IMG/VR virus record: IMGVR_UViG_3300045988_023308
Source of the DNA: a virus
DNA length: 42,430 nucleotides
Reading direction: 5' to 3' (one strand)
Shown: piece by piece, positions 4,739 through 42,036 of the stretch
Position numbering within the stretch: the stretch's first letter is position 1
Layout: each line of letters begins with the position of its first letter
Made by a program: the position numbers and the translations under genes
Notes under the pieces: generated by a model
Told to the model about the DNA's origin: nothing
What the model saw: the letters and a program-made list of their open reading frames with translations, nothing else
Database searches by the model: none

Positions 4739-4948
4739 TTAAAGAAGCTCACGAGGGGAGACGTCTAACACTTTGGCGATATCCTTAATCAACTCTCTAG
4801 AAGCGCCCTTTTTACCGTGCTCGATTTGGTTAATCATGCTTGCTGTTACCAAGACTTCTTCGCCAAGTTGCTTTTGCGTCATGCCTGCGCTTAGTCGTAG
4901 CTTTCGCATTTTCATAAAATTTATGGTTCTGTAATTCGTTCTTTTCAT
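4739..4948 (-). CDS. XRE-family HTH transcriptional regulator (Cro-like candidate)
   Basis: ATG at 4948 after AGGAGG. MRKLRLSAGMTQKQLGEEVLVTASMINQIEHGKK. Confidence 0.75.
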   Translation of the reverse strand: MKRTNYRTINFMKMRKLRLSAGMTQKQLGEEVLVTASMINQIEHGKKGASRELIKDIAKVLDVSPRELL

Positions 4949-4961
4949 TCTTTTCCTCCTT

Positions 4962-5333
4962 TCATTCGGACAGTGGTTCGTTTCGCTTGATAGCGATACC
5001 GCCCTTGTATGGATACCCCCGATATGGCACACCAAATTTCACATACGGCTCTAGTGCCGCAAATGATATTTGTGCGCTGCGGTTTCGGCGGTTCAAGCAT
5101 CTGCTGTTCCACCCCGGTTCAGCCGGGATAAATAGGATATGATCTTTCCCCATTTTCACCGTTATGTTATCCACGCCGAGCAGAAGCTTTTTCGCAAGCG
5201 AATTAAAGTTAACCAGGCAGCGTGTATAATCGTAGGAATAAAAGGTTACGGTGGGGACTTTATACCTTCCTTTCCCGGAACTGCTGATATCCAGAAATTC
5301 TTCGTTTTCGTCGATTTCGATATCCGTTACCAA
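4962..5333 (-). CDS. Hypothetical protein
   Basis: TTG at 5333, 6 nt after GAGGAGG, overlapping the upstream TAA (TTGGTAA). The upstream part of the track ORF overlaps gene 5327-5536. Confidence 0.5.
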   Translation of the reverse strand: MVTDIEIDENEEFLDISSSGKGRYKVPTVTFYSYDYTRCLVNFNSLAKKLLLGVDNITVKMGKDHILFIPAEPGWNSRCLNRRNRSAQISFAALEPYVKFGVPYRGYPYKGGIAIKRNEPLSE

Positions 5334-26203: not shown

Positions 26204-26794
26204 TTAGCCTCCCATACCAGGTTCGGCTTCACCGGCCTTGATATAGATTTCAAACGGTGGGGTATCCTGTGCATTGATCGAATAGTGCCCAGTAAATTCG
26301 AAAGAGAACTGGCCTTTGCTCTGATCTCCGGTTTTAAGCTGGAAACCGCCAGTGGAAAGGCTATTCAGCATGTGGATTGCGAGATACCCGCCGTTTTTTT
26401 TGCCATTCTTGTCTGAATAGTCTGCCACAAGCCAAATATCCTGGAAATCGCTCTCTGCGATATCGTTTCTCGGGGTAATTTTCCCGGACACTTCATCGGC
26501 TGCCGCCGTCATTGCCTTTGCATTGGCAACGTTCACGGACACGAATGTACCACTAACCTTTGTTTCCCAGCTCTCCAGGCGTTTCAACTCTTTCGTGTTT
26601 TTCGGGCAATTGTTGATATCCTCGCCCAAGTCCGTGAAAGTAGGCGTAGCAACAAAGGTCACATCACCGCTAGTTGCGCCGATGATGCTATTGGCAGCTA
26701 CTTCTGCCGTAGATGGATCGAAAGAAGAAAGCAGAATGCCAGCGTTCATTACCAGTTCCTTGAAAGTGTCCTGTGGAATCTGCGTATATTTCAT
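26204..26794 (-). CDS. Major tail protein
   Basis: ATG at 26794 after AGGAGG. 196 aa, located upstream of the chaperones. Confidence 0.7.
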   Translation of the reverse strand: MKYTQIPQDTFKELVMNAGILLSSFDPSTAEVAANSIIGATSGDVTFVATPTFTDLGEDINNCPKNTKELKRLESWETKVSGTFVSVNVANAKAMTAAADEVSGKITPRNDIAESDFQDIWLVADYSDKNGKKNGGYLAIHMLNSLSTGGFQLKTGDQSKGQFSFEFTGHYSINAQDTPPFEIYIKAGEAEPGMGG

Positions 26795-26805
26795 CGTTTT
26801 CCTCC

Positions 26806-27168
26806 TTATACGAAATATTCGGCGGTGATATTTAGAACCCGCCGCTTGATTGTGTTTTCCTCGTCCGGAACAGCTCGCATAAATGGGGAGCCACGCAAAA
26901 GCCAGATATAGCCGCCGTCCACATCTACGGTACATCCGCCTCGGCCTATTGCCTCTCCGATTTCCGCACCCTTTGCGGTTGGGATTGTTTCGGATTCCGT
27001 CTTATACCAGATGTTTACAGTCAGATTTACGGGCATCTCCCCGAAAATGGCCGTAGCGAACGAGTATGTCATATATGGCATTTCCTGCTTATCCGGGACA
27101 GCTGTCTCCGGGAAAGCAGGAATGCCGAAACCGTTGAAAAATTGGTGTAGTGCTTTGTCTGCCGTCAC
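26806..27168 (-). CDS. Tail completion/terminator-like protein
   Basis: GTGA overlap with the upstream gene. Position just before the major tail protein gene. Confidence 0.45.
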   Translation of the reverse strand: MTADKALHQFFNGFGIPAFPETAVPDKQEMPYMTYSFATAIFGEMPVNLTVNIWYKTESETIPTAKGAEIGEAIGRGGCTVDVDGGYIWLLRGSPFMRAVPDEENTIKRRVLNITAEYFV

Positions 27169-27518
27169 TTACTTAGCACCCACCTTTCGGCGGTCACTTG
27201 GCACATATCCAGGGTGCCGAAATCCGGAGACCGCTTATCCGCTCCGTTGCTGGTTGCCCGGAAAATTGCGCCGTCCGATAGCCGCTTGAAAACATCATGG
27301 AAGGATAGGGGAGTGTTCCTTCGGGTGGTGACGGTGTACACATTGGTAACGCCCTCTTTTTCGGCAATCCGGCTTTGCATGGACGTATCCAGGATAATTG
27401 CAGCGTGGAACGCCGCTCCTTCCGTCCATTCCGAAATCCATCCGCCTGCCCCATCCGGTGTGCGCTTCTTTTCCATCAGGACGCAAGCGTCCTTCAGAAA
27501 ATTATCAAGCAAACTCAT
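27165..27518 (-). CDS. Head closure / head-tail adaptor protein
   Basis: ATG at 27518 after GGAGGA, with an ATGA overlap. The call is positional. Confidence 0.45.
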   Translation of the reverse strand: MSLLDNFLKDACVLMEKKRTPDGAGGWISEWTEGAAFHAAIILDTSMQSRIAEKEGVTNVYTVTTRRNTPLSFHDVFKRLSDGAIFRATSNGADKRSPDFGTLDMCQVTAERWVLSK

Positions 27519-27955
27519 ATTTTCCTCCACATCCGCAAGCGTGGCGCAAACACTGTCTTCCAGCTCATGCTTTCGCCTGTGCCGCCGCTTTCGCTTGCTT
27601 TGGTGTACGAATACCCACCGAACGATTCGCTCTGATATGGGCTTTGCAAAGCCTCAGCGTGTTTCTCCTGCCAGACGTTAATTTCATCCAGCAGAATCAG
27701 CAGCTCCGTAGGGATGCAAAGCTCGGTCACGATACCGCTGTAGGTCTCGCTACGCAAATCAGAGTTCCCGTATACATGGATACCGTTGTTTCGGCGGCTT
27801 CCTTCAATCAGGTAATAGTCTCCGTTTTCCAGGCCGGGGAGGAGCAGACGCTTCTCCGTGATATCCTCGCCGAAAAACTGCCACTTTTCACCGGGAAAGA
27901 AATTCCGCAGGTACACAAGCAGCTCGTATAGACTTACGGGCGTTGTCTGCCCCAT
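27515..27955 (-). CDS. Head-tail connector-like protein
   Basis: ATG at 27955 after GGAGG. Contains an SESFGGYSYTK motif. The call is positional. Confidence 0.45.
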   Translation of the reverse strand: MGQTTPVSLYELLVYLRNFFPGEKWQFFGEDITEKRLLLPGLENGDYYLIEGSRRNNGIHVYGNSDLRSETYSGIVTELCIPTELLILLDEINVWQEKHAEALQSPYQSESFGGYSYTKASESGGTGESMSWKTVFAPRLRMWRKI

Positions 27956-27969
27956 GTTTCCCCCTCCTT

Positions 27970-28074
27970 TCACTGGCCCTTAACGGCGGCCAGAATATCC
28001 GCTTTGCTCATTGCGGCACTGACCCCGGCAATGCCGTGTTCTTTGGCGTATTCCAAAAGCTGGGCTTTCGTCAT
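27970..28074 (-). CDS. HeH/Rho-N-like small domain (separate 34-aa protein or C-terminal extension of MCP)
   Basis: MTKAQLLEYAKEHGIAGVSAAMSKADILAAVKGQ. There is no convincing RBS. The frame is open back into the MCP 3' end in the -1 frame. Confidence 0.45.
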   Translation of the reverse strand: MTKAQLLEYAKEHGIAGVSAAMSKADILAAVKGQ

Positions 28075-28124
28075 GCCGTCAAAGTCCACGGCTGCCGGTG
28101 CGGTGTCATTAGCCAGTGCCGCTT

Positions 28125-29024
28125 TTAACCCCCCGGCGTAACGGTGGCAACTGCAATGCCATCCAGGTATTCTGCCCACAGCTTCATGCCCATGATGGCA
28201 TACATATCGCCGGTTGCACGGCTGTAGTCGCCCTCGACATGCACACCGATCAGGTTGGTTTCGCCCTTCACGGTGTAGTTCAGACCCAGCTTTGCGAAGT
28301 CGCTGTCGCTAGGATCAACGTAGTACAGGTCAATGTTTTCCACAGGGGTAGCAATGACCTTACCAGCGGCAACATACTTGTCGGGCAGCAGGAACAGGGT
28401 GCTGTAGCCCAGGAAGTTCTGGACATAGGTCAGGCCAAACATGGTCTGGGTGGTAATTTCCTTATCGCCCAGGTAGTCATAGAAATCCATGATGTTTGCA
28501 AATCCTACGACCTCGGTCACGTCCTTGTCCATGCCCATGAACTTTGCCAGCACTTTGCCCTTTGCCTGTGCAAGTGCCTGCTGCCAGGTCTTGGGGGTCA
28601 GAGCCAGGGAGCCGGTAGCCAGGAAGGCGTAGAAGTCGCCCAGAATCTTGTTCTGAAGGGCAACCAGGAAAGCGTCATCCGTCTTTTCCACGGCAACCTC
28701 TGCGCCGTACTTGGCAACGCTCTCGATGGTTACGCTTTTTGCGTACTTGGATACCTCAATGTCGCCATAGGCAACAGGGGCAACCTTCATTTTGGTGAAA
28801 GGAATCTCGTCGCCTTCCGCAACGGTGGAACCGCCCTTCAGGCCGCCGTCCACCTCAGCCTTATAGGATACCAGCTTAGTGCCGGGGGCTTTGCGGATAG
28901 GTCGCATAATGCCCAGGATCGTGCGCAATGCGTCCCAGTTGTCGTTGAACCGGGTCACGAAATCCACCTCACGGGCGGTAGTCGTGTACTGCGCAGTTGT
29001 AGTTACGTTCGTTTTTGCTGCCAT
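28125..29024 (-). CDS. Major capsid protein
   Basis: 299 aa directly after the scaffold gene. RBS AAAGGAG. MAAKTNVTTTAQYTTTAREVDFVTRFNDNWDALRTILGIMRPI. Confidence 0.8.
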   Translation of the reverse strand: MAAKTNVTTTAQYTTTAREVDFVTRFNDNWDALRTILGIMRPIRKAPGTKLVSYKAEVDGGLKGGSTVAEGDEIPFTKMKVAPVAYGDIEVSKYAKSVTIESVAKYGAEVAVEKTDDAFLVALQNKILGDFYAFLATGSLALTPKTWQQALAQAKGKVLAKFMGMDKDVTEVVGFANIMDFYDYLGDKEITTQTMFGLTYVQNFLGYSTLFLLPDKYVAAGKVIATPVENIDLYYVDPSDSDFAKLGLNYTVKGETNLIGVHVEGDYSRATGDMYAIMGMKLWAEYLDGIAVATVTPGG

Positions 29025-29044
29025 TTCAACAGCTCCTTTCGATT

Positions 29045-29659
29045 TTATTCATTTTCGCTTGCTAAGCTTTGCGCAAGCGCAGCCTGCCGCTCTGCGGTAG
29101 ACAGCAGATACCGGCCTTTATCATCCTTCTTGTAGATTTCAGCCCGGCTTTTTACTCCATCCGTGGTATCGGGCGGTGTCTGGGTCTGGGTTCCGTTCTT
29201 TTTGACTTTCCCAACCAGCCCCTTGTAGTCGCCGGAAAGCAGTCCGTCCAGAGCAGCGGTGTCCTTGATGGTTTCCCCATCCAGCGTCAGGCCGTCAATT
29301 TCAGCCTTTGCGCCCCGGATCACCAGAGCCATGCTCTCGGCGGGAATTCCCTTGCTCTCGAAGTACGCCCTTGCCGCCTTTTCTTTGGCTGCCGCACTCT
29401 CCTTAGCTTCGATTCCCGCCTTGTAGTCCTGGAAATCCTTCTTTTCCTTTTCGTACTTGGCCTTAAAGCCTCCATCGCCGCCCTCTTTTTTCAGGTCGTC
29501 CAATTCCTTCTGAACGCCAGGCAACTTTTCAGCGTCCGCCTTGTAGGTGGCGATTAGGTCTTTCAGCCCATCCACAGTGTCGGTGTGTGCTTCGATGATG
29601 GTGGCAACCTGTTCTTCGGTCAGCCCCATGCTCTTCAAAAAATTGCGAGTTAATGCCAT
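29045..29659 (-). CDS. Scaffolding protein
   Basis: ATG at 29659 after AAGGAG. MALTRNFLKSMGLTEEQVATIIEAHTDTV. Charged, helical, Lys/Glu-rich. Confidence 0.75.
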   Translation of the reverse strand: MALTRNFLKSMGLTEEQVATIIEAHTDTVDGLKDLIATYKADAEKLPGVQKELDDLKKEGGDGGFKAKYEKEKKDFQDYKAGIEAKESAAAKEKAARAYFESKGIPAESMALVIRGAKAEIDGLTLDGETIKDTAALDGLLSGDYKGLVGKVKKNGTQTQTPPDTTDGVKSRAEIYKKDDKGRYLLSTAERQAALAQSLASENE

Positions 29660-29774
29660 GACATGTATCTCCTTTTCTTCGGGGGAAGTTCTTTTCCCTT
29701 TGATATTTTTACCGTAGCACAAAAAGTAGGCCGTGATACACATTTTTCACTCGTTTGTTCGATGATTTCAAAAT

Positions 29775-29806
29775 GGAAAACCCCGCAGCGGATAACCGCC
29801 ACGGGG
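29775..29806 (-). terminator. Strong intrinsic terminator inside the head module
   Basis: The minus strand reads CCCCGTGGCGG-TTAT-CCGCTGCGGGG (11 bp including two G.U pairs) followed by TTTTCC. Confidence 0.7.
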
Positions 29807-29827
29807 TAGGGAAGATGGTATTGTGTT

Positions 29828-30169
29828 TTACATAGCGTCAGCTGCTTTGAACGCTTCCACCAGTTTTGGAAACTGGATTGCGAAGAAATCCACCATTTCT
29901 TCGTTTTGCGCCCAGCTGGAATTTTCCGCAAGGCCACTTTCGAAAAGAAAAGCGTGAATAATCTCATGTCGCTTGTTCTTTCGAATCTGAACCGCTAAAT
30001 TTTTCTTACAAGTTGGATCATCCTCGGAACCGGCGTAGTTATCCACAAGCAATTCCTTCACGGTCTCGTCGCAGATGCCGTCCGCATCTTTCAACCTGAC
30101 ATCTTGGCTTTTGCTGGTAATCGTCAGCGTATAAGCCGCTCCCAGAATGTTAATTTCCTTACTTTCCAT
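29828..30169 (-). CDS. HExxH zinc-metallopeptidase-motif protein
   Basis: KNKRHEIIHAFLFESGL contains HEIIH. 113 aa. RBS AAAGGTGG. Confidence 0.6.
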   Translation of the reverse strand: MESKEINILGAAYTLTITSKSQDVRLKDADGICDETVKELLVDNYAGSEDDPTCKKNLAVQIRKNKRHEIIHAFLFESGLAENSSWAQNEEMVDFFAIQFPKLVEAFKAADAM

Positions 30170-30535
30170 TTAGCCACCTTTCAGCTCTTTTTCCACAATT
30201 GCCTTGTATTTGTCAAGGTGGTTCTCAACTGCCGGACGCAAATACGGCTGCGCTTTTTGCTTGGAAGTGCCTTCTTCCACGCACTGGGCATATTCCACAT
30301 TCGTTCCGATTGTTACCGTGTCATCGTCGGTGTAAAAGGTGATGCTGTTTCTCAGCCTGCCGGTTCTCACGGGGCAAAGCCGTTTTGCGTAGCCCTCCGC
30401 CACCAGGCCGATTGTGACCAACGCCCTGTGAATAGCCAGCCGCAATTCCCTGGTAACGTCATCTGTCAGGTTGAGAGAATCAATTGTCACATGGAAGTCT
30501 CCACCGCCGGAGGATTTTTGAATCCGTTTTGCCAT
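30170..30535 (-). CDS. HK97 gp10-like protein
   Basis: LCPVRTGRLRNSITFYTDDD...VEYAQCVEEGTSKQKAQPYLRPA matches the gp10-family signature. Its position upstream of the scaffold gene is unusual. Confidence 0.6.
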   Translation of the reverse strand: MAKRIQKSSGGGDFHVTIDSLNLTDDVTRELRLAIHRALVTIGLVAEGYAKRLCPVRTGRLRNSITFYTDDDTVTIGTNVEYAQCVEEGTSKQKAQPYLRPAVENHLDKYKAIVEKELKGG

Positions 30536-30538
30536 CGG

Positions 30539-30826
30539 TTATTCCTTTCCGTAAAGGTATTTCCTTGTGTATTCTGTTTCCACAGCGTACAGATTCCCAT
30601 TTTCATCTTCTTTAATCCAGAGTGTGGGGAGCATCAACGTTTCAATGTCGTTCGCCAGCCCGTCCGGTTCTGGTGCATCTGGATTTGATACGCAAAGGAT
30701 AACGCCCATTGTGCTATTTGCTCGAATTTGCCGTTTGGCTTTCTCAAAATCAATTTGCTTTCCTTCACAATAATTTTTAAGAAATACCTTCGCCTTATCA
30801 AGGTTAATCAGTCTTCTCTTCTGCAT
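30539..30826 (-). CDS. Hypothetical protein (immediately after the MuF-JAMM gene, 23-nt overlap)
   Basis: ATG at 30826 after GGGGGA. 95 aa. Confidence 0.55.
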   Translation of the reverse strand: MQKRRLINLDKAKVFLKNYCEGKQIDFEKAKRQIRANSTMGVILCVSNPDAPEPDGLANDIETLMLPTLWIKEDENGNLYAVETEYTRKYLYGKE

Positions 30827-32246
30827 ACATTATCCCCCATTGACCACGGTAGTCATAAATTGCAGATTGTTTTTGATTGAAAAGTTTAAGAATTTTTGTA
30901 TCTCCATCCGACGGAAGCAAACCACCATACACATGGGTATGGCCGCTCCATTTCCATCCGGCATCCCGATATGTCGGTACAGTTAAACCATTCAAGGAAT
31001 TTACATGATGGTCGTTTCCGCGGAAAATCATACGTTCGCCTTTTCTGGTCAACATGGCAAACTCCACGCCCTCATGGGCAGACAGAGCAGCAATGTCTTT
31101 CAAACTGCATTCCCGTTTGCTGACAGATACAAAATCTCCGTCATTCTGCAAACTGTTAAGCAAAGTCCTTTGCTTTTTGCTAAGCGGTGCACCGGCATTT
31201 ACAAAATTCGGTTTTCCAATAGCGGAATTCCTGGCACTTACAGAATCACTCTTATCTGATGCTATTATACCACTTTTCCCGGATTTTTCAACACTTTCTT
31301 GCTCTTTTCCCGCTTTCCAGTCCTCATAGCTCACCCCGTCCAGTTTGGAAGCCCTGGGTGCGTCGCTTTGGTCGATACCCTTCACTACGGAAACCAAAGT
31401 GCATCGGCAATTGTAAATCAGATACCCCGGTGCTTGCGGGTCTCCGGGATATCGGATAGAATCACCGCCCACATGGAATGCCTCACCTACGGCTACTCTT
31501 TGACCGTCAAGCAGTCGGTGCTCGTGCCGGGTTCTGCCGTCCAGCGTAGCAAGCCACTCCTGTTCCAGTTCGATTCCGATAGATTGCGCATATTTGTAGG
31601 TATCGATTCTCCCGGCACATTCCGCCGCCGTGGTTGCCGTCCGGGCAGAGCGGACAGCGGCGTTCAAATCCATGCTTGCCACAGTCACAAGCCGCTTGGC
31701 AATGTCCTGGATGGGGTCGCCCAGCAGAATGCCTTTGTTGATAGCTGCCGTGATATGCTTCTGGTTCCAACGCTTATCAACAGGCACATCTACGGACGGA
31801 AGGGGAAGCAGGTTCGGCTCTTCCCGGATCAGGCGTTCCACCGTGCTATGGTCGTATAGCGTCCACGACAAATTGACGTTTGCTTTCTTCTCGATATCAT
31901 AAGCGGCATAATTGGCATTCAGGGCGTAAACGTCTTTTGCTTCGCCGTTCACAATTTTCATTGCGATTTTGTCGGCGTTGGTGAAATCCTCGGTCAGCAC
32001 ATCGATCATATCTCGCAAATGCTTTTCTTTGCCTAGCAGCTCTTGCCGCCATCCTGTATATGCCTTCTTTGACAGCTTCCCATCTGCAACGGCCTGCGCT
32101 TTCTTTTCGTCAAGCTCCCGGAATTCTGCCAGCACAGCAGAAAGCTTGTCCTTGGCTTCTGACAGAGTATCAGCATATACCTTTGCAATTCGCTTTTCCA
32201 TCACCGCCAATCGCTTGTCGGTCTCCTTGTGCCCATAATCGGCCAT
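30804..32246 (-). CDS. MuF/SPP1 gp7-like head morphogenesis protein with a C-terminal JAMM/MPN-motif domain
   Basis: Core motif ...DGRTRHEHRLLDGQ...YNCRCTL. The C-terminal 135 aa contain EFAML...GHTHVYGGLLPSDGD, which fits HxH-x7-S-xx-D. Confidence 0.7.
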   Translation of the reverse strand: MADYGHKETDKRLAVMEKRIAKVYADTLSEAKDKLSAVLAEFRELDEKKAQAVADGKLSKKAYTGWRQELLGKEKHLRDMIDVLTEDFTNADKIAMKIVNGEAKDVYALNANYAAYDIEKKANVNLSWTLYDHSTVERLIREEPNLLPLPSVDVPVDKRWNQKHITAAINKGILLGDPIQDIAKRLVTVASMDLNAAVRSARTATTAAECAGRIDTYKYAQSIGIELEQEWLATLDGRTRHEHRLLDGQRVAVGEAFHVGGDSIRYPGDPQAPGYLIYNCRCTLVSVVKGIDQSDAPRASKLDGVSYEDWKAGKEQESVEKSGKSGIIASDKSDSVSARNSAIGKPNFVNAGAPLSKKQRTLLNSLQNDGDFVSVSKRECSLKDIAALSAHEGVEFAMLTRKGERMIFRGNDHHVNSLNGLTVPTYRDAGWKWSGHTHVYGGLLPSDGDTKILKLFNQKQSAIYDYRGQWGIMYAEEKTD

Positions 32247-32249
32247 AGG

Positions 32250-33659
32250 TTAACCCTCCGGCGGCTGCTGCTCCTGCTGGTTTTCCTGTTGCTGATTCTG
32301 TGTACCATGATTCTGCATTGCGCCCATACGCTTCAAATCTGCCTCATCTCGCCGTTTCAGAATCTCCGGCACTTCCTCCGGCAATAGCCACGGCAAATGC
32401 CGAAGGGTCGTTTCATCGTCCAGGAATTCAGCTGCGGATATAACCATATTCGTGATTTCTGCCTGATTGATGACCTTGTTCCAGGTGAACGCCGGTTCCG
32501 GGTCATCGATTCCAGCCACAGCGCAAATCTGCCGGATAAAATCAATCAGGAAGTACTCGAAATCTGCGCACTTGTTATCCTGCGGCTGATATGCCGCCGA
32601 AATCTCCGTAGCGGTTTTTTCCGCAGCGGACAAAGCCGATACATCCAGCATTTGTGCATCTTCGTACAGGTCACGCCGCAAGATATCCAGCATGGTTTTT
32701 CGTGCTTCCACGGGTACATCCAGTGTGTGTGCCTCTGCTGCCGTGCCATCGCTGCCGTCAAGCATAGTAGCCTTGACGCTCTTCATCCGCTGCACAAATT
32801 GTGCCAAGTCTTTGTCATCCATGGCTCCGGTGTTTTTCAGAATCCAATATATGCCGCTGGTGTCGTCAATTTGGTTGGCAAACCCGGATTTGATGAAATC
32901 ATAGCAGTCGATGGAGCCACGCAGACCCACCAATTCGCTTTCGTGGGTGTCGTTGCCGTAAAGCGTAGCAATAGGGAGCCGGGTGTAATTCTCGTCGCAG
33001 ACATCTACAACGCCAAGGTCATTCCGTAGCTCTTTCAGGATATATGCCCGCTTCGCCGTTATCATGGTAGCATCGTCGCTGCCTTCCGCCGCCCACTCGC
33101 TCACGCCGTCCAATTCATACAGCGTTGCCCGGAAAAGCGTCTTGTTCCCGGTCTCCCGGAACCAGTACCGGATACCGGCCATCAGCTCAGAAGTGTTTTC
33201 ATCCAGCAGGGGAACGAAACCAGGATTTCCGGGAGTGTCGGCAAAAGAGAATACTTCCAGATGATCCAGATTCCAGTACCCGAAGGCTACGCCCTGCGCC
33301 AGAGCCAGTTTCGCCGCAGTCTGAAGCTTGTTATCAAAATCAGTGCCTAGCTTTTCTTTTTCGTCCATGCTCACGCCGTTTGCGCAGATGTAGCCCACTT
33401 CTTGCAGCACAAGCCGCCGAAACATCAGCGTTTTCAGCCGGTAGTCACTACTCCAAATGTCAGGCGTTTTGTTGCCGGACAGAGTAAAAAGGAATTTCTG
33501 GAATTTCTCGATGGTGATGTTATGCTTGTTGTAATACGCCATCCCGTCCACAGCATCTTTGTAGGCCTTGCTTCCCTGATGCTCCCGAACTGCCGAACGC
33601 AGAAATCCGCCCAGCGTTCCCTTCGTGATTGCTTCCTGCAAATCCTGGTATGTCTTCAT
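32250..33659 (-). CDS. Portal protein
   Basis: ATG at 33659 after GGAGGG. 469 aa, located between TerL and MuF. Confidence 0.8.
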   Translation of the reverse strand: MKTYQDLQEAITKGTLGGFLRSAVREHQGSKAYKDAVDGMAYYNKHNITIEKFQKFLFTLSGNKTPDIWSSDYRLKTLMFRRLVLQEVGYICANGVSMDEKEKLGTDFDNKLQTAAKLALAQGVAFGYWNLDHLEVFSFADTPGNPGFVPLLDENTSELMAGIRYWFRETGNKTLFRATLYELDGVSEWAAEGSDDATMITAKRAYILKELRNDLGVVDVCDENYTRLPIATLYGNDTHESELVGLRGSIDCYDFIKSGFANQIDDTSGIYWILKNTGAMDDKDLAQFVQRMKSVKATMLDGSDGTAAEAHTLDVPVEARKTMLDILRRDLYEDAQMLDVSALSAAEKTATEISAAYQPQDNKCADFEYFLIDFIRQICAVAGIDDPEPAFTWNKVINQAEITNMVISAAEFLDDETTLRHLPWLLPEEVPEILKRRDEADLKRMGAMQNHGTQNQQQENQQEQQPPEG

Positions 33660-33691
33660 TCGTTCCCTCCAAAGTATCAAATTTCAGTTGC

Positions 33692-34972
33692 TTACAAAAA
33701 TGCAGCAGCTGCCGGGTCAAGTGTAGTTTCTTTTTTGCTCCACAGTCGTTTGACGATGCAGGACAGGCTATCCGGTGCATCATCATGCTCGGCTTCTTCG
33801 TTGTAGTCGCAAATCTGGTTGATGTACGCTTTGTCCGTTCCATCCACAAACACGACATTTTTCCACTCAGGCTTTAGCACGCTGGAAATCTTCTCGAATT
33901 TGTTCTGGTTTTCGTGGTACTCCACACACCGTTCTCCACGCCGCCGCAAATCCTTTGCCAGATAGCCCTTGTCACCGTTGTTCTCGCAGTAAATCACACC
34001 GGCATTAAACATTTTCCGATACCGGATAATATCGTCCTTGCAATCATCAACGTGCTTTCTCCACATCTTCCCGAACACATAGTATTTTCCATTGCGTTTC
34101 TTGCAGATGGTAAATGCCGTGTAGTCCTCGCCGCCATAGGCAGCATCCACATGGCAAATGCCCTGTTCCGCAAGGGCAGGGTCAGCACCAGTTACCGGGT
34201 CACGGAATATCACATCATCTGACGCAATGTGCCGTAGTTCGTAGTTTGCGGCAAACAGGGAAGCGGTCATGCTGTCCCGGATTTTGGCAAGCGTCTCTGT
34301 GGATATAAGCCCGGTCTGGTAGCAGTCGTACCGTTCCGCTTCTGGCATCAGCGTGAAACAGTCTTCTTTGTGCCAGGGTGTGCCAGTGTTAAATATCCTG
34401 CCGCCCCGGTTCTTGATATTCTGCAATTCTTGGTAGATGATTTTCGTATGGTCACGCTCTGCCTTGGAGATGCGGTCTTGAACATTTACTATATCGTCTG
34501 TGAAAATAATATCGAAGTGCTTACCCGTCAGGGAGCCGGAAATACCACAGCCGTAAAGCTGCACTGTTCCTTTTGCGTCCTGGGAAAGATTGGTGTTGAT
34601 CTCCACAGCTGATGCGGTAGTCAACGCCAGCGGTCTTCCGTGTATTACTTCGCAAACAGCCTGCATATACGGTGACATAAGGATATTTTGCACCTGCCAG
34701 ATGACCTCTTTCACGTCGCTGTCCGTTTTGCGCATGAACATAATTTTTTTGTTCGGCAGCAGCACGATCAGGCAGGCCAGGGAGATAGACACGCAGGTTG
34801 TCTTGTAACTGCCCCGGTGCGCCTGCAACGTCTTATCAGACTTTGACCGTATCATTTCGCACATCCATGTGTTATGCAGCTTGACGGTCAAATCCTTGAA
34901 GCCAACAGCCCAGCCGATTTTTATCGGCTCATCCTTCAGCAGCTTCACCGCCTGTTCCGCTGTCATCTCCAA
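33692..34972 (-). CDS. terL: Terminase large subunit
   Basis: QAHRGSYKTT (Walker A-like), IIFTDDIV (Walker B-like), C-terminal nuclease motif EHDDAPDS. Confidence 0.85.
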   Translation of the reverse strand: MEMTAEQAVKLLKDEPIKIGWAVGFKDLTVKLHNTWMCEMIRSKSDKTLQAHRGSYKTTCVSISLACLIVLLPNKKIMFMRKTDSDVKEVIWQVQNILMSPYMQAVCEVIHGRPLALTTASAVEINTNLSQDAKGTVQLYGCGISGSLTGKHFDIIFTDDIVNVQDRISKAERDHTKIIYQELQNIKNRGGRIFNTGTPWHKEDCFTLMPEAERYDCYQTGLISTETLAKIRDSMTASLFAANYELRHIASDDVIFRDPVTGADPALAEQGICHVDAAYGGEDYTAFTICKKRNGKYYVFGKMWRKHVDDCKDDIIRYRKMFNAGVIYCENNGDKGYLAKDLRRRGERCVEYHENQNKFEKISSVLKPEWKNVVFVDGTDKAYINQICDYNEEAEHDDAPDSLSCIVKRLWSKKETTLDPAAAAFL

Positions 34973-35309
34973 TCACCATCTTTTCCAGCTCATCCAGCGC
35001 AATGCCCTTTGCATCGGCTACGGTCACATCCACATTGTCCCGCTGATCAAGGTACTGCTTGCCAAGCCAAATAGCCATAGATGCGGACTTTTCTGCAAGC
35101 TGCCATTGCTTACGCCGCAGTGATATTTTCCCCATTCCACGCTTTTGCGAAAAAACTTCGGAGAAACCCGCATGATATGTGCGTTTACACCATGATTCAA
35201 GCGTTTTGTCAGTCACGTCAAAAAAAGCACAAATTTCCAGTTTTGTACACTGAATTCCACATAGATTTTCAAATTCTTTTTGCTTGATTTCCTTCCTTGG
35301 TCTTCCCAT
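34929..35309 (-). CDS. terS: Terminase small subunit
   Basis: ATG at 35309 after AAAGGAGGGAGG. MGRPRKEIKQKEFENLCGIQCTKLEICAFFDVTDKTLESWCKR...SLRRKQWQLAEKSASMAIWLGKQYLDQRD. Confidence 0.75.
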   Translation of the reverse strand: MGRPRKEIKQKEFENLCGIQCTKLEICAFFDVTDKTLESWCKRTYHAGFSEVFSQKRGMGKISLRRKQWQLAEKSASMAIWLGKQYLDQRDNVDVTVADAKGIALDELEKMVIGDDSGTGGEAAEG

Positions 35310-35347
35310 ACGCGCCCTCCCTCCTTTTGGCACAGTACACGGCATTT

Positions 35348-35422
35348 TGGAGCAGCGAGGTCGGAGTTGAACCGCCATCTTTCCGCGGGATGCGGAATGT
35401 TTTACCGTTAAACCACCGCCGC
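35348..35422 (-). tRNA. tRNA-like cloverleaf with encoded CCA (non-canonical; possible pseudo-tRNA or tRNA-like regulatory RNA)
   Basis: GCGGCGG TG GTTT AACGGTA AAAC A TTCCG CATCCCG CGGAA AGAT GGCGG TTCAACT CCG(A)CC TCGCTGC T CCA. U8, A14, GG18-19 and the T-loop are canonical. Deviations are A33, a bulged A in the T stem, and G3.U70. Confidence 0.5.
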
Positions 35423-35433
35423 ATATTGCCGTG

Positions 35434-36171
35434 TTATTGATGCCTTTCTGCTTGCGTTACCTTTTCCCCTTTGTACATTCCAGCGCCCATTTCGTCGATT
35501 TTGGAAAACGGAATAATCGGAACGGTAAGCCGGTCTCTATATGTTTTGTCAATAAAATAGATATATCGGAACATCTTCCCTTCAAGGATTTCCCCGCCGA
35601 ACTGTTCGACGCACTTCTCCAGCGTGAAGTTTTTCCCATGTGTCCTCTCTAAAATATACCTTGACAATGCGCTGCATTTATTCTGCACTTTCATTCTGTG
35701 GGCAACTGACCCGCCGTTTATTTTCACGAGGTAATCAGGAAGTTTCCACATTGATCCGCTTGAATAACCTGTCAAAACAAACCCGCTTGCACGATAAATT
35801 GTTCCGTCACCGCATTGGCAACCATCCGCAAACGAAATGACCCATTTGATTTGCGGCGCGTTTTTGCGGATTAGTTTCATTGCAATCGAAATCGCACGGC
35901 TTTCACTATTGCGTGGGAGAATATCGTCAAACGCCATGCGGTTCAATTCGATGAATTCGTTCCACCCGGTTCCCTCAACAAGCCCTTGGATTTTAGACTT
36001 ATCTAAAGACGGGCCAAAGGACATAACGCCGTGAAGTCTGCCTTCGTAAAACACGCCGAAATGCAAATTGCTGTTATTTACAACCTTTCCGCTGTAATGG
36101 TGTGTTTTCACAAACGGAACGGCAACCTTGCTCGGAATAACTTTTACAATCAAGTCCTTTGCGCTGCCCAT
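35434..36171 (-). CDS. Mom-like GNAT-fold protein (adenine methylcarbamoylation family candidate)
   Basis: VIPSKVAVPFVKTHHYSGKV...FGVFYEGRLHGVMSFGPS...ELNRMAF...NSESRAISIAMKLIRK...ISFADGCQCGDGTIYRASGFVLTG. RBS GAGGTGA. Confidence 0.55.
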   Translation of the reverse strand: MGSAKDLIVKVIPSKVAVPFVKTHHYSGKVVNNSNLHFGVFYEGRLHGVMSFGPSLDKSKIQGLVEGTGWNEFIELNRMAFDDILPRNSESRAISIAMKLIRKNAPQIKWVISFADGCQCGDGTIYRASGFVLTGYSSGSMWKLPDYLVKINGGSVAHRMKVQNKCSALSRYILERTHGKNFTLEKCVEQFGGEILEGKMFRYIYFIDKTYRDRLTVPIIPFSKIDEMGAGMYKGEKVTQAERHQ

Positions 36172-36725
36172 TGCCGTATCACCTCATATAATGCGTTCCC
36201 GTTTTTATTGGCGTTGCCAAACGTTTCTGTTATTTCATCTTCAACACACGTCATGGCATATTCGATCAATTCTTTTTGCTGTTCATGGAGCGTGAATGTC
36301 ATTTGGCAGATTTCCGATTTGTTCCCATCCGGCAAGGAAAAATCAGTTCCGTACTCATCCTCGTTTTCAATCCCCCAATCAAAGTCAAACGCCGACAAAT
36401 CCAGTTCCGGCAGCTCCTCCACCAGCAAGTCCATATCCCATGGGCTTTCGTTGGTTTTGTTGTCCACTAGCCGCAGGGCGTTCACCTGTTCCGGCGTCAG
36501 ATCATCCACGCAGACACAAGGGACGGTTTTCATGCCCAGCTTCTTTGCAGCTTCCGCTCTGCAATGCCCAATGACGATCACGCCGTCACGATCAATGACA
36601 ACCGGCTGCACAAAACCGTACTGCTTGATACTCTCTGCCACGTTGGCAATCTGCTTTTTGTCGTGCTTCTTTGCGTTCTTCGCATACGGCACAATTTCGC
36701 TTAGTTTCTTCTGGATAATATTCAT
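36150..36725 (-). CDS. ParB-like nuclease domain protein
   Basis: LSEIVPYAKNAKKHDKKQIANVAESIKQYGFVQPVVIDRDGVIVIGHCRAEAAKKLG (ParB N-terminal/sulfiredoxin fold). Confidence 0.75.
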   Translation of the reverse strand: MNIIQKKLSEIVPYAKNAKKHDKKQIANVAESIKQYGFVQPVVIDRDGVIVIGHCRAEAAKKLGMKTVPCVCVDDLTPEQVNALRLVDNKTNESPWDMDLLVEELPELDLSAFDFDWGIENEDEYGTDFSLPDGNKSEICQMTFTLHEQQKELIEYAMTCVEDEITETFGNANKNGNALYEVIRQWAAQRT

Positions 36726-40629: not shown

Positions 40630-40973
40630 CGTTAACCCTCCGGTTCCATGCTTTTTCCGCATCCTCCATTGCCAGAGAATACCGCTCCGGGACGATTTCA
40701 CCATTTCTCCGCATTCTGACCGCCCCGGCATTTGTCAGGTAAGTACAAGGTGGATGCGCAATCAACATATCCCACCGACCCACATCATGCACCTGTCCGT
40801 CCATGGTGGTCACTTGCCCCCCCCTCGATGGCCTTTAGGGCATCCCCTAAGATGTGCCACTCCGGGTGGCCGCCGCTTGGCTCCTGGATGTCGCAGGAGT
40901 AGGCTTCATGCCCCCGCGCCCGGAACGCCTTGCACACGGTTTGCGATTCCTCGCAGGCTATCAGTACTTTCAT
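40619..40973 (-). pseudogene. PPCTYL-motif (methyltransferase-like?) gene interrupted by a frameshift at a G8 homopolymer
   Basis: MKVLIACEESQTVCKAFRARGHEAYSCDIQ...AIEGG, frame break, then VTTMDGQVHDVGRWDMLIAHPPCTYLTNAG. Removing one G from 40817-40824 fuses the two track ORFs. Confidence 0.55.
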
Positions 40974-41866
40974 TCGTCTATCATCTCCAAATAATCCTCC
41001 ATACTGGTCTGTCCCGGCAGCACATCGTACTCCATCCACCAGCGGCACACATCTTCTGCGGTGGTTCCCATGCGCCATGAACCGTCCAGTTTCCCACGCC
41101 GTCTGCGTTCCTCCAGCATCCGTTCAAAGGCGTTCAGGTAGAGTTGCTTGTACTTCGGCCACCGGGCGAATTCTGCTTCCCGCCCTTTCTTGCCAGCCAT
41201 CGGACAGCCAACACACCCAACACGGCATTGCCCCTCTGCGTAAAGCGGATTCATCGGGACTTTCGCATCTTCTAAAAATCCGTACACATCCTTGTCCGCC
41301 CAGTCGATAATCGGGTTTACAACTCGTTTCGCTTTCAGGCGGCAGTTTTCAAAAAGCATACGCTTTTCGTCATTGTCGTTGGCAAGAATGATGCGTTTAT
41401 CCTTGGTTGCGCCCAGTTTTTCGTAGATTCCCCGGTTGTTTTTACGAGACACAGATTCAACCCATCTAACGCCGGTGCAGATGAACCGCCCTGCCCCCCC
41501 TGTTTCTTTCAGCACGGAACAGCAGTACCGCACCAGCCGGGTAGGTGGCATGAGTTTTTGAGGGATTAAGCTCCACATGGACACCCGCCTCCCCTTGTAA
41601 ACCGGCATGTTCACGGTGCATTTGTAGCCCTTTCCCTCCAACCGTTTGAACTCACTTCTGACAAACCGCACCGTTTCTGGGGCATCAGCCGTGGTGTGGC
41701 TGTGTTGGAACTCGCAGGGGATTCCCGCCCGAATGGCAAGCTCCGTGATAACACCGCTGTCCTTGCCTCCGGAAATGCAGATCACAAGGGGCTGCTGATA
41801 CGCCATCAGGGACATTTCCGATGCAGCTTTCAGGCGTTCGATTGCAGTTTGCTCTAAGTCGTTCAT
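40970..41866 (-). CDS. PAPS reductase / ATP-pyrophosphatase superfamily protein
   Basis: ATG at 41866 after GGAGGA. VICISGGKDSGV P-loop (SGGxDS). C-terminal Cys cluster CRVGCVGCP. Confidence 0.75.
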   Translation of the reverse strand: MNDLEQTAIERLKAASEMSLMAYQQPLVICISGGKDSGVITELAIRAGIPCEFQHSHTTADAPETVRFVRSEFKRLEGKGYKCTVNMPVYKGRRVSMWSLIPQKLMPPTRLVRYCCSVLKETGGAGRFICTGVRWVESVSRKNNRGIYEKLGATKDKRIILANDNDEKRMLFENCRLKAKRVVNPIIDWADKDVYGFLEDAKVPMNPLYAEGQCRVGCVGCPMAGKKGREAEFARWPKYKQLYLNAFERMLEERRRRGKLDGSWRMGTTAEDVCRWWMEYDVLPGQTSMEDYLEMIDE

Positions 41867-42036
41867 TCCGCATCCTCCACCGGGGATTTGAACCAGTTCG
41901 ACCAGCATCTTTTGCAGTCGTTGCAGCAAGCCTCTCTGGGATTGGGAGGACAGCCAAGGCCGTCGCAGATGTCAGCCAGCTCCTCATCCGTCATGTTCCG
42001 GATGCGGTCGGCGTTGGTCTTGGGCTTAGTCTCCAT
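41863..42036 (-). CDS. Hypothetical 57-aa Cys-rich protein (below ORF-track cutoff)
   Basis: METKPKTNADRIRNMTDEELADICDGLGCPPNPREACCNDCKRCWSNWFKSPVEDAE. The ATG overlaps the upstream TAA and the TGA overlaps the downstream ATG. Confidence 0.55.
   Translation of the reverse strand: METKPKTNADRIRNMTDEELADICDGLGCPPNPREACCNDCKRCWSNWFKSPVEDAE

Follow-up and report, generated by a model that had tools for sequence, protein, structure and literature searches.

In the viral DNA of IMG/VR record IMGVR_UViG_3300045988_023308 (42,430 nucleotides (nt); this whole stretch is called the window below), the gene lying directly after the portal gene encodes a head protein of the MuF family, 480 amino acids (aa) long, the C-terminal part of which carries the signature of the JAB/JAMM metalloenzymes; its 3' end overlaps a short open reading frame (ORF) of 95 aa. 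The C-terminal domain and the small partner, a candidate toxin and immunity protein, are the subject of this work. The elements of the locus are as follows.

32250..33680, minus strand: portal gene, the ORF immediately upstream of the MuF gene (a position that defines MuF genes)
30804..32246, minus strand: MuF-JAB fusion gene, an ORF of 480 aa with a Phage_Mu_F match and matches to PHROG head-morphogenesis families
31395..31760, minus strand: MuF core domain, aa 163-284 (PF04233 at aa 163-284; TIGR01641 phageSPP1_gp7 at aa 168-287)
31263..31301, minus strand: junction linker QESVEKSGKSGII, aa 316-328, the recombination breakpoint at which the variable tip joins the constant MuF part
30807..31259, minus strand: JAB/JAMM-like domain, aa 330-480 (family of 691 clusters, AlphaFold2, Foldseek and hhalign)
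31062..31064, minus strand: codon of E395, the predicted general-base Glu (99% conserved; paired by hhalign with E22 of AfJAMM)
30900..30941, minus strand: H436-T-H438-x7-S446-xx-D449, predicted zinc ligands and oxyanion Ser (conservation, hhalign and AlphaFold2)
30539..30826, minus strand: gene of the 95-aa partner, the predicted cognate immunity protein or inhibitor, with a 23-nt overlap with the 3' end of the toxin gene
30521..31302, minus strand: swappable cassette (tip and partner), delimited by blastn breaks against sibling phages

The head protein and its C-terminal domain

The portal ORF ends 4 nt upstream of the MuF-JAB gene, and SPP1_portal is the precomputed Pfam label on contigs carrying an identical MuF-JAB protein. 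A preliminary description of the window, made from its letters, had called the 480-aa product a MuF/SPP1-gp7-like head protein; this is upheld by the Pfam model Phage_Mu_F (aa 163-284, E 2.5e-13) and by the strings HEHRLLDGQ…YNCRCTL, which are indeed present in the protein. The NCBIfam model phageSPP1_gp7 gives a weak match (aa 168-287), the N-terminal two-thirds are matched by several PHROG families of head morphogenesis, and aa 16-385 by phrog_595, which bears the label 'head maturation protease'; the MuF core is presumed to be the capsid-targeting, portal-associated part. At least 46 contig blocks carry exactly this protein of 480 aa, most of them being contigs of 42.4-42.7 kb, human gut metagenomes included, and the window is probably a common, near-complete gut phage genome.

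The C-terminal stretch of the protein holds EFAMLTRKGERMIF, with E395, and SGHTHVYGGLLPSDGD; written as …HEGVEFAMLTRKGERMIF…GWKWSGHTHVYGGLLPSDGD…, it gives E395 and H436-x-H438-x7-S446-xx-D449, that is, the pattern E…HxH-x7-S-xx-D with its HTH…D at nt 30941..30900, exactly as the preliminary description had it. By itself this motif is weak evidence and is not significant, the strict HxHx7SxxD occurring once in the six-frame translation of the window, where the mean over 100 shuffles is 0.27; it becomes significant because of its conservation across a family. A word-indexed search with aa 345-480 as the query found 11 relatives, and already among these GWxWSGHTH…SDGD is invariant; an exhaustive profile search, covering 1.84 billion cluster representatives, yielded a family of 691 clusters (at 50% identity) at E<=1e-3, with 173 of these at <=1e-30. 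Conservation was computed in 154 representatives (50% identity clusters), which are about 35-45% identical to the window protein: H436, H438 and S446 are kept in 100% of them and E395 and D449 in 99%, so that the five residues, on whose conservation among homologues the earlier proposal had been made to depend, are all retained. Further conserved positions of the domain are Q359, K377, D384, T400, R405, R409, G410, G430, G435, Q458, S461 and G468, and the residue between the two histidines is Thr in 152 of 153 representatives. The x7 spacing, which had been likened to that of RadC/MPN proteins, does agree with the likeness in the window protein and in YicR, but not in most relatives; HxH-x10-S is found in 134 of the 153 representatives, and the canonical x7 solely in the window's subclade.

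As to the limits of the domain, the C-terminal domain that had been proposed is present, its start being corrected from aa 345 to about aa 330 (nt ~31259): aa 340-349 fold with the domain, with a predicted local distance difference test score (pLDDT) of 93, and a conserved N-terminal extension (aa 330-375, with the consensus I-x-S-P-I-E-Q-R-N-T-G-K-G-N-P-N-A-I) is modelled confidently within the fold. At the other side, the end of the domain lies at most 5 residues from the C-terminus of the protein in 153 of 160 sequences.

Structure prediction, one of the checks proposed beforehand, returned a JAB-like fold, of the deaminase-like alpha/beta kind, both in a first AlphaFold2 model built from 12 sequences (pLDDT 88.9, predicted template-modelling score (pTM) 0.83) and in a second built from 46 (pLDDT 93.8, pTM 0.87). 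In these models a helix precedes the strand that opens with E395, the central strand ends in HTH, and the helix after it has S-xx-D at its N-terminus; as modelled, the secondary-structure order of the motif is the arrangement of the JAMM enzymes. The top Foldseek match in the PDB is PfJAMM1 (5ld9/5lda), with probabilities of 0.91 and 0.99 for the two models, followed by Rpn11, AMSH/Sst2, CSN5/6, EMC8, Cap3 (9ild), a bacterial deubiquitinase acting on ubiquitin-like (Ubl) proteins (8tyx) and deaminase-fold proteins.

A comparison at the level of profiles was made with AfJAMM, whose sequence was verified as 1OI0 and whose homologues, all carrying Pfam Prok-JAB, were collected and aligned (alignment A4). 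Aligned by hhalign to A4, the new family (alignment A3) gives a probability of 65% and an E-value of 5.9e-5 over 82 columns, pairing E395 with E22, H436/H438 with H67/H69, S446 with S77 and D449 with D80. These five residues of AfJAMM, which we take to be its metal and catalytic residues, are invariant or nearly so in A4. Against single sequences the motif is aligned as well, both for AfJAMM (E 0.0011) and for E. coli YicR, a RadC protein (E 0.0029, probability 10.7%); a comparison of hidden Markov model (HMM) and sequence is marginal with JAMM (E 0.02-0.1 in a tiny database), and the family profile run against PDB sequences found no JAMM. Nothing meaningful was matched in PHROGs, NCBIfam, PADLOC or the PDB sequences, whether the domain was searched as a single sequence or as three profiles; the domain alone has no PHROG match, phrog_595 covering the MuF part. 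The Prok-JAB/MPN profile search proposed earlier thus came out divided, with no match to a curated model and with moderate profile-profile homology (the 65% and 5.9e-5 just given).

We consider it very probable that the domain represents a clade of the JAB/JAMM superfamily that is divergent and uncatalogued and whose active site is intact; within the JAB superfamily, it is in none of the curated families tested (Prok-JAB, RadC, DUF4329). Membership of Tox-JAB-2/DUF4329 was not supported, there being no DUF4329 match, and hhalign finding no alignment (probability 0.3%) to Xop411 p25, a protein that matches DUF4329 at E 8e-5; the H[ST]H signature alone is shared. Membership of the RadC-like JAB proteins was likewise not supported, with no PF04002 match and with an N-terminus that is MuF and not UPF0758 or helix-hairpin-helix (HhH). 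A comparison with lambda K was uninformative, the annotated K being N-terminally short.

The partner gene and the exchange of the cassette

Related loci number 145 in GTDB species representatives, and 80 of them were fetched; most belong to Clostridia (Oscillospiraceae, Ruminococcus, Lachnospiraceae, Christensenella), the others to Chitinispirillia, Fibrobacteria, Prevotella/Bacteroides, Planctomycetota, Acidobacteriota and Myxococcota. A homologue of the partner directly follows the JAB domain in 67 of 78 loci when ORFs are searched with an iterative HMM, and in 80 of 85 when the six frames are searched; in the ORF-based loci the offset between the two genes ranges from -56 to +33 nt, a 4-nt overlap being the commonest. 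The genes past the partner (gp10-like, 113-aa ORF, scaffold and major capsid protein (MCP)) are common to close relatives alone. The partner family, of about 85 aa, has invariant C20, G56, L57, L69, T84, T87 and Y90 and a conserved C-terminal segment, FEQTEYTxKYL. In 14 full-length loci the divergence of the JAB domain is correlated with that of the partner (Spearman 0.57, p 4e-9) and not with that of the N-terminal backbone (-0.02). The sole PDB sequence match of the partner profile (alignment A5) is SUMO-2, with E 0.2 and an hhalign probability of 18% over 51 columns; that the partner is a ubiquitin-like protein was not borne out, ubiquitin giving no match and the one to SUMO-2 being non-significant, though curious in view of the association of JAB enzymes with Ubl proteins and noted as a lead. 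Imm65 and Imm-NTF2-2 were not detected in it.

When aa 1-310 of the MuF-JAB protein were used as the query, MuF backbones 95-98% identical to that of the window were found to bear at least six different C-termini.

JAB domain: proteins of 476-482 aa
Ntox50 (PF15542): proteins of 438-465 aa
DUF6883 (PF21814): proteins of 439-441 aa
unknown domain: proteins of 453-455 aa
coiled-coil-like tail: protein of 417 aa
HEIGH zincin: protein of 541 aa

The near-identical backbones diverge after …SYEDWKAGKE or after the linker QESVEKSGKSGII (…KSGKSGII). Three sibling contigs share the same order of genes, namely TerS, TerL, SPP1 portal, MuF-X, a small ORF, gp10-like (121-122 aa), a 113-aa ORF, scaffold and MCP (299-308 aa); their cassettes consist of Ntox50 with an ORF of 67 aa, DUF6883 with one of 54 aa and the unknown domain with one of 65 aa, and these small ORFs are unrelated. 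The limits of the exchange were seen by blastn: the window is 91% identical to sibling L091 over 34385..31303 and then 93% over 30520..26794; it is 92% identical to L092 down to 31264 and then 94% from 30520; and homology to L093 ends at 31303 of the window. What is replaced in the siblings (~30521..31302) comprises the JAB domain and the 95-aa ORF, neither more nor less. Such co-replacement of the tip and the small ORF is the defining behaviour of polymorphic toxin/immunity cassettes; with Ntox50 found at the same slot, and each tip accompanied by its own small ORF, the locus therefore bears the signature of a toxin/immunity cassette. That MuF proteins serve as a scaffold for polymorphic C-terminal effectors, which had been stated earlier from general knowledge, is here seen directly in the swapping of cassettes among siblings. 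The linker motif KSGxSGII is common to otherwise unrelated tips (JAB, DUF6883 and the 417-aa variant), the 454-aa variant reading 'SLENGIINIG', and it coincides with the recombination breakpoints; by analogy, it may be a demarcation motif comparable to VENN in CdiA.

The cassette is also found outside MuF genes. In about 35 of the 63 genome loci with enough upstream sequence, a short JAB ORF (150-200 aa) is followed by the partner and no MuF-like ORF lies within 5 kb; three of these free-standing pairs, with their neighbours, are listed here.

L050: pta-ackA and an SLH protein
L076: Fe-ADH and a histidine kinase
L066: GGDEF and radical SAM

In many free-standing cassettes part of the linker survives in frame, as DKSGxSGII, upstream of the start codon, as is expected for cassettes excised from, or destined for, fusion genes. 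At L033 (~4940-4985) a TGA codon stands within the remnant ('DNSG*NGII'); L035 and L065 also keep the remnant. The possibility that the short JAB ORFs are MuF genes subject to stop-codon recoding or frameshift was rejected, all three stops being present upstream in frame and no MuF-like ORF within 5 kb. A tandem second pair was seen in 2 of 85 loci (L060, 0-1402; L069, 4115-5688), which could be arrays of orphan cassettes or recent duplications; with tandem pairs in these two loci only, long orphan arrays of the kind known from contact-dependent inhibition (CDI) and Rhs loci were rejected.

The carriers of the tip comprise MuF1, MuF2/Phage_min_cap2, portal fusions and a post-portal protein of 1166 aa; on the N-terminal parts of the 85 members, Pfam finds Phage_Mu_F in 27, Phage_min_cap2 in 21 and Phage_portal in 2. 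The 1166-aa protein (L094, 3509-7282), in which no Pfam domain is found, follows a P22-portal-like gene and bears the JAB domain, after which comes an ORF of 89 aa; a homologue of it, read from a stop-to-stop ORF of 1190 aa, is present in the cultured Christensenella hongkongensis HKU16 (L023). Two further proteins combine the elements differently: P0113 (736 aa) unites MuF, a HELGH zincin and the JAB domain in a single chain, and P0230 (541 aa) has a near-identical MuF backbone with a tip that carries the HEIGH zincin motif and has no Pfam match. The plasmid search yielded one member, on plasmid P3 of Deinococcus gobiensis I-0 (L097, 5046-5659; NC_017771.1, 38544..39157); it is divergent and N-terminally short, has HSH, lacks the RG of the R409/G410 motif, is probably truncated, and is followed, with a 4-nt overlap, by an ORF of 96 aa unrelated to the partner family. 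No match was obtained when the window domain and a consensus-like member were compared by tblastn with 50,697 GenBank phage records, and megablast of half the window gave trivial matches alone, with no cultured phage relative found.

The proposed toxin and immunity pair, and the alternatives

The locus shows the three features of MuF toxins that were tested, that is, a MuF domain after the portal, a polymorphic tip and a cognate small ORF. In our judgement the MuF-JAB gene and its partner are likely to be a MuF polymorphic toxin, with a JAB-like toxin domain that is new, together with its cognate immunity protein or inhibitor, and the gene probably belongs to an SPP1-like siphophage or prophage of ~42 kb from gut Clostridia. 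A role in immunity is given to the partner because of its strict adjacency, its co-variation and its co-swapping with the tip. The family of the predicted toxin tip and that of the predicted immunity protein are new; the architecture and the logic of MuF toxins are already known.

How the system might work can be proposed as follows. By analogy with SPP1 gp7 and with MuF proteins, the constant part (aa 1-315) would enter the procapsid via the portal in few copies and would be ejected with the DNA. The variable tip (aa ~330-480), which motif and model predict to be an active zinc-dependent hydrolase, would damage or reprogram a cytoplasmic target in the recipient, which may be a nucleic acid as well as a bond of the peptide or isopeptide type; E395 is predicted to act as the water-activating base, H436, H438 and D449 as zinc ligands and S446 as the stabiliser of the transition state. 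The 95-aa partner would neutralise the tip by direct binding in the producing cell or lysogen, and the two together form a mobile cassette, which recombines at the KSGxSGII linker onto different head-protein backbones.

A number of results weigh against this reading, or against the superfamily assignment that underlies it. Scanning the window domain with Pfam at E<=10 gave no family, neither JAB (PF01398) nor Prok-JAB (PF14464), RadC (PF04002) or DUF4329 (PF14220), and in a scan of the 85 members no JAB-type family stood among the 25 commonest of the 49 families listed at E<=0.1. The Foldseek E-values are all >=5.8e-3, with template-modelling (TM) scores of 0.34-0.48, and the hhalign probability is no higher than 65%, superfamily membership being well supported, short of textbook confidence. 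A detectable partner is missing in 5 of 85 loci, and the distant members L004, L082 and the Deinococcus plasmid have unrelated small ORFs downstream, which fits a diversification of immunity genes without proving it. The partner, moreover, finds no match in Pfam, PHROG, NCBIfam, PADLOC or the PDB and has no recognisable fold or family, and the isoelectric points (~8.8 for the JAB domain, ~5.8 for the partner) are unremarkable as to charge and give no hint to the substrate.

Part of these results would be explained if the motif were a coincidence, or if the domain were inactive as an enzyme and had a structural or binding role: chance alone would give 0.27 strict motifs per window, none of the curated JAB profiles finds the domain and the Foldseek E-values are weak. 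Yet the five catalytic positions are 99-100% conserved in sequences otherwise 35-45% identical, they lie on the same secondary-structure elements as in the JAMM enzymes, and hhalign places them in register with E22, H67, H69, S77 and D80 of AfJAMM, so that we hold this explanation to be extremely improbable. An active JAB domain might serve the assembly of the head itself, processing capsid or scaffold proteins or cutting itself off MuF at the linker during head maturation; the gene does belong to the head module, where it stands between the portal and scaffold genes, aa 16-385 are matched by phrog_595, the annotated ~20 kb show no evident prohead protease of the ClpP, S49 or HK97 type, and the conserved peptide I-x-S-P-I-E-Q-R-N-T-G-K-G-N-P precedes the core. 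Siblings with head genes 91-94% identical, however, lack the JAB domain and have unrelated tips instead, and the domain is therefore not required for assembling this capsid; SPP1-type heads need no protease. Moreover, the phrog_595 match covers the MuF part, the domain alone having no PHROG match, the conserved upstream peptide folds within the domain (pLDDT 93, aa 340-349), and JAB-partner pairs exist free-standing, away from capsid genes. A morphogenetic protease is accordingly very unlikely.

Activity on ubiquitin-like proteins deserves a fuller discussion. It may be imagined that the packaged JAB domain strips Ubl conjugates early in infection of hosts with Bil-like or CBASS Cap2-type systems, the partner being an assembly chaperone or a temporary inhibitor: the catalytic set of a JAMM isopeptidase is intact and conserved, the best structural matches are directed at Ubl proteins (PfJAMM1 with and without SAMP2, Rpn11, AMSH, Cap3 (9ild), 8tyx), the placement on MuF would mean delivery at the right time, and the partner shows some faint likeness to SUMO-2, which is not significant (E 0.2; hhalign probability 18%). 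Such a counter-defence deubiquitinase is nonetheless distinctly unlikely. The siblings fill the same slot with Ntox50, a polymorphic-toxin RNase, and with unrelated domains, a small ORF going with each; the pair is also found by itself in chromosomes, away from phage genes, which would be senseless for an anti-defence enzyme delivered by the virion, and there it is flanked by housekeeping genes. No Pfam families of ThiF/E1, E2 or Ubl proteins are present in the ~20 kb with precomputed Pfam labels around the gene on identical contigs and PADLOC gives no match, the likeness to deubiquitinases is no closer than that to minimal archaeal JAMMs and to deaminases, the domain travels with a dedicated partner of ~90 aa in 80 of 85 loci, and toxin-type JAB clades were found in an earlier analysis to be without the residues of the Ubl-tail tunnel (PMC3482391). 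Both capsid processing and the removal of Ubl conjugates are less parsimonious in this context than toxin and immunity.

The partner could, on the other hand, be a substrate, cofactor or chaperone, the ~90-aa protein being processed by the JAB enzyme or escorting it, with a regulatory, non-toxic effect on the host. Adjacency and co-variation would be equally expected of such a module, small Ubl proteins are the classical partners of JAB enzymes, the C-terminal FEQTEYTxKYL of the partner is highly conserved, its resemblance to SUMO-2, weak as it is, points the same way, and, as noted by Jamet et al. (PMC5576092), MuF tips of the peptidase type might have just a mild toxicity and could influence the choice between lysis and lysogeny. 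We consider this unlikely: the partner has no C-terminal Gly-Gly, the alignment shows no Ubl N-terminal beta-hairpin region in it and ubiquitin gives no match, while the equivalent cassettes of this site hold toxins of established type (Ntox50), a small ORF accompanying each, and gene order, size and overlap are those of the immunity genes of polymorphic toxins (PMC5576092). A related variant, quite unlikely in our estimate, is that the virion delivers a JAB enzyme of the isopeptidase or peptidase kind instead of a nuclease, and that its ~90-aa partner would be a Ubl-like pseudo-substrate plugging the groove by the FEQTEYTxKYL tail or by Cys20; were it true, gut phages would inject, at the start of infection, an enzyme that removes Ubl marks (of Bil or CBASS type) or cleaves a specific host protein, and the free-standing pairs would be a new class of JAB-based toxin-antitoxin systems.

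Related systems and neighbouring genes

The toxin/immunity reading can be set beside the MuF polymorphic toxins already described (PMC5576092, PMC3482391, PMC12226406). The features shared with these are a MuF domain at the N-terminus, in a gene that directly follows that of the portal, a C-terminal extension that varies on near-identical backbones, a small (<150 aa) downstream ORF that changes along with it, and a distribution predominantly in (pro)phages of Firmicutes; Ntox50 is, moreover, an alternative tip at this very locus. Among muf genes with a toxin, 89% are followed by an ORF of <150 aa (PMC5576092), and a pair of MuF toxin and immunity protein has been shown experimentally for Apk2 (PMC12226406). 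The system differs from them in that its tip family is unlisted among MuF toxin domains and has no match in Pfam, NCBIfam or PHROG, in that its partner family is unannotated, and in that the cassette often occurs as a free-standing chromosomal pair.

That clades of the JAB superfamily serve as toxin domains of polymorphic toxins is known (Zhang et al. 2012, PMC3482391). The Tox-JAB toxins resemble the present system in having a C-terminal toxin tip of JAB fold with a dedicated immunity protein and, in the case of Tox-JAB-2, in the signature E, H[ST]H, S, D (here H-T-H in 152 of 153); unlike it, they are reported on Rhs, type VI and type VII secretion (T6SS, T7SS) and TcdB-type carriers and not on MuF, and, for Tox-JAB-2, the DUF4329 model misses the new domain and Imm65 and Imm-NTF2-2 are undetected in the partner. 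A nuclease role has been proposed for the Tox-JAB toxins; Aravind and colleagues argued that nucleic acids may be what JAB domains of the toxin and RadC types act on (PMC3482391, PMC5512222). The new domain has peptidases as its structural neighbours. Tox-JAB-1 and Tox-JAB-2 have been predicted since 2012, and no report of their biochemical activity was found in the literature.

With the minimal archaeal enzymes AfJAMM (1OI0) and PfJAMM1 (5LD9), the domain shares a core of ~120 aa, the secondary-structure order and the catalytic motif, and it is to these that the best Foldseek match (5ld9, probability 0.99) and the best profile-profile match (the AfJAMM family) are found. The differences are an identity of ~15%, a Prok-JAB model that misses the domain, the x10 spacing of most members here and the extra conserved N-terminal extension (aa 330-375); PfJAMM1 cleaves SAMP conjugates, whereas no Ubl or E1 partner genes are found near the new domain. 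As to RadC (E. coli YicR, PF04002), the HxH-x7-S-xx-D spacing is identical to that of the window protein and the motif is aligned (E 0.0029), but there is no PF04002 match and no UPF0758/HhH N-terminal module, the single-template probability is 10.7%, and no RadC structure is among the Foldseek matches. RadC domains occur in polyvalent proteins of phages and plasmids (PMC5512222).

MuF polymorphic toxins are a recognised, little-studied route by which temperate phages inject enzymes with their DNA. To these the present locus would add a large family of toxin domains (691 clusters at 50% identity; 145 loci in GTDB species representatives), found mostly in gut and rumen Clostridia, and a matching immunity family, neither being annotated in current resources. 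A compact domain of 150 aa with an inhibitor of 90 aa makes a tractable system in which to ask whether a toxin-type JAB is a peptidase or a nuclease; natural controls are provided by the swapping of cassettes in otherwise identical phages, and a relative is at hand in the cultured C. hongkongensis HKU16. Annotation would be corrected as well, the label 'minor capsid protein' hiding an effector and many short 'hypothetical' gene pairs of Clostridia being the same module.

Some other genes of the window, all on the minus strand, may be recorded. The ORF at 30170..30535, between the MuF cassette and the scaffold gene, is an HK97-gp10-like/tail-completion (Neck1) gene, an unusual place for a connector gene. 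The 113-aa ORF at 29828..30169 carries a HExxH motif (HEIIHAF) and matches phrog_1233 alone (E 9e-19), for which the function is given as unknown; it is called at the same position in the siblings, whatever the toxin cassette. A tRNA-Gly with anticodon TCC (35348..35422) overlaps the start of the 149-aa ORF at 34929..35378, which occupies the position of the small terminase. Farther upstream of the packaging genes, Mom-like (35434..36171), ParB_N (36150..36725) and PAPS-reductase-like (40970..41929) genes, named from the precomputed Pfam labels of an identical contig, suggest a DNA-modification or anti-restriction module.

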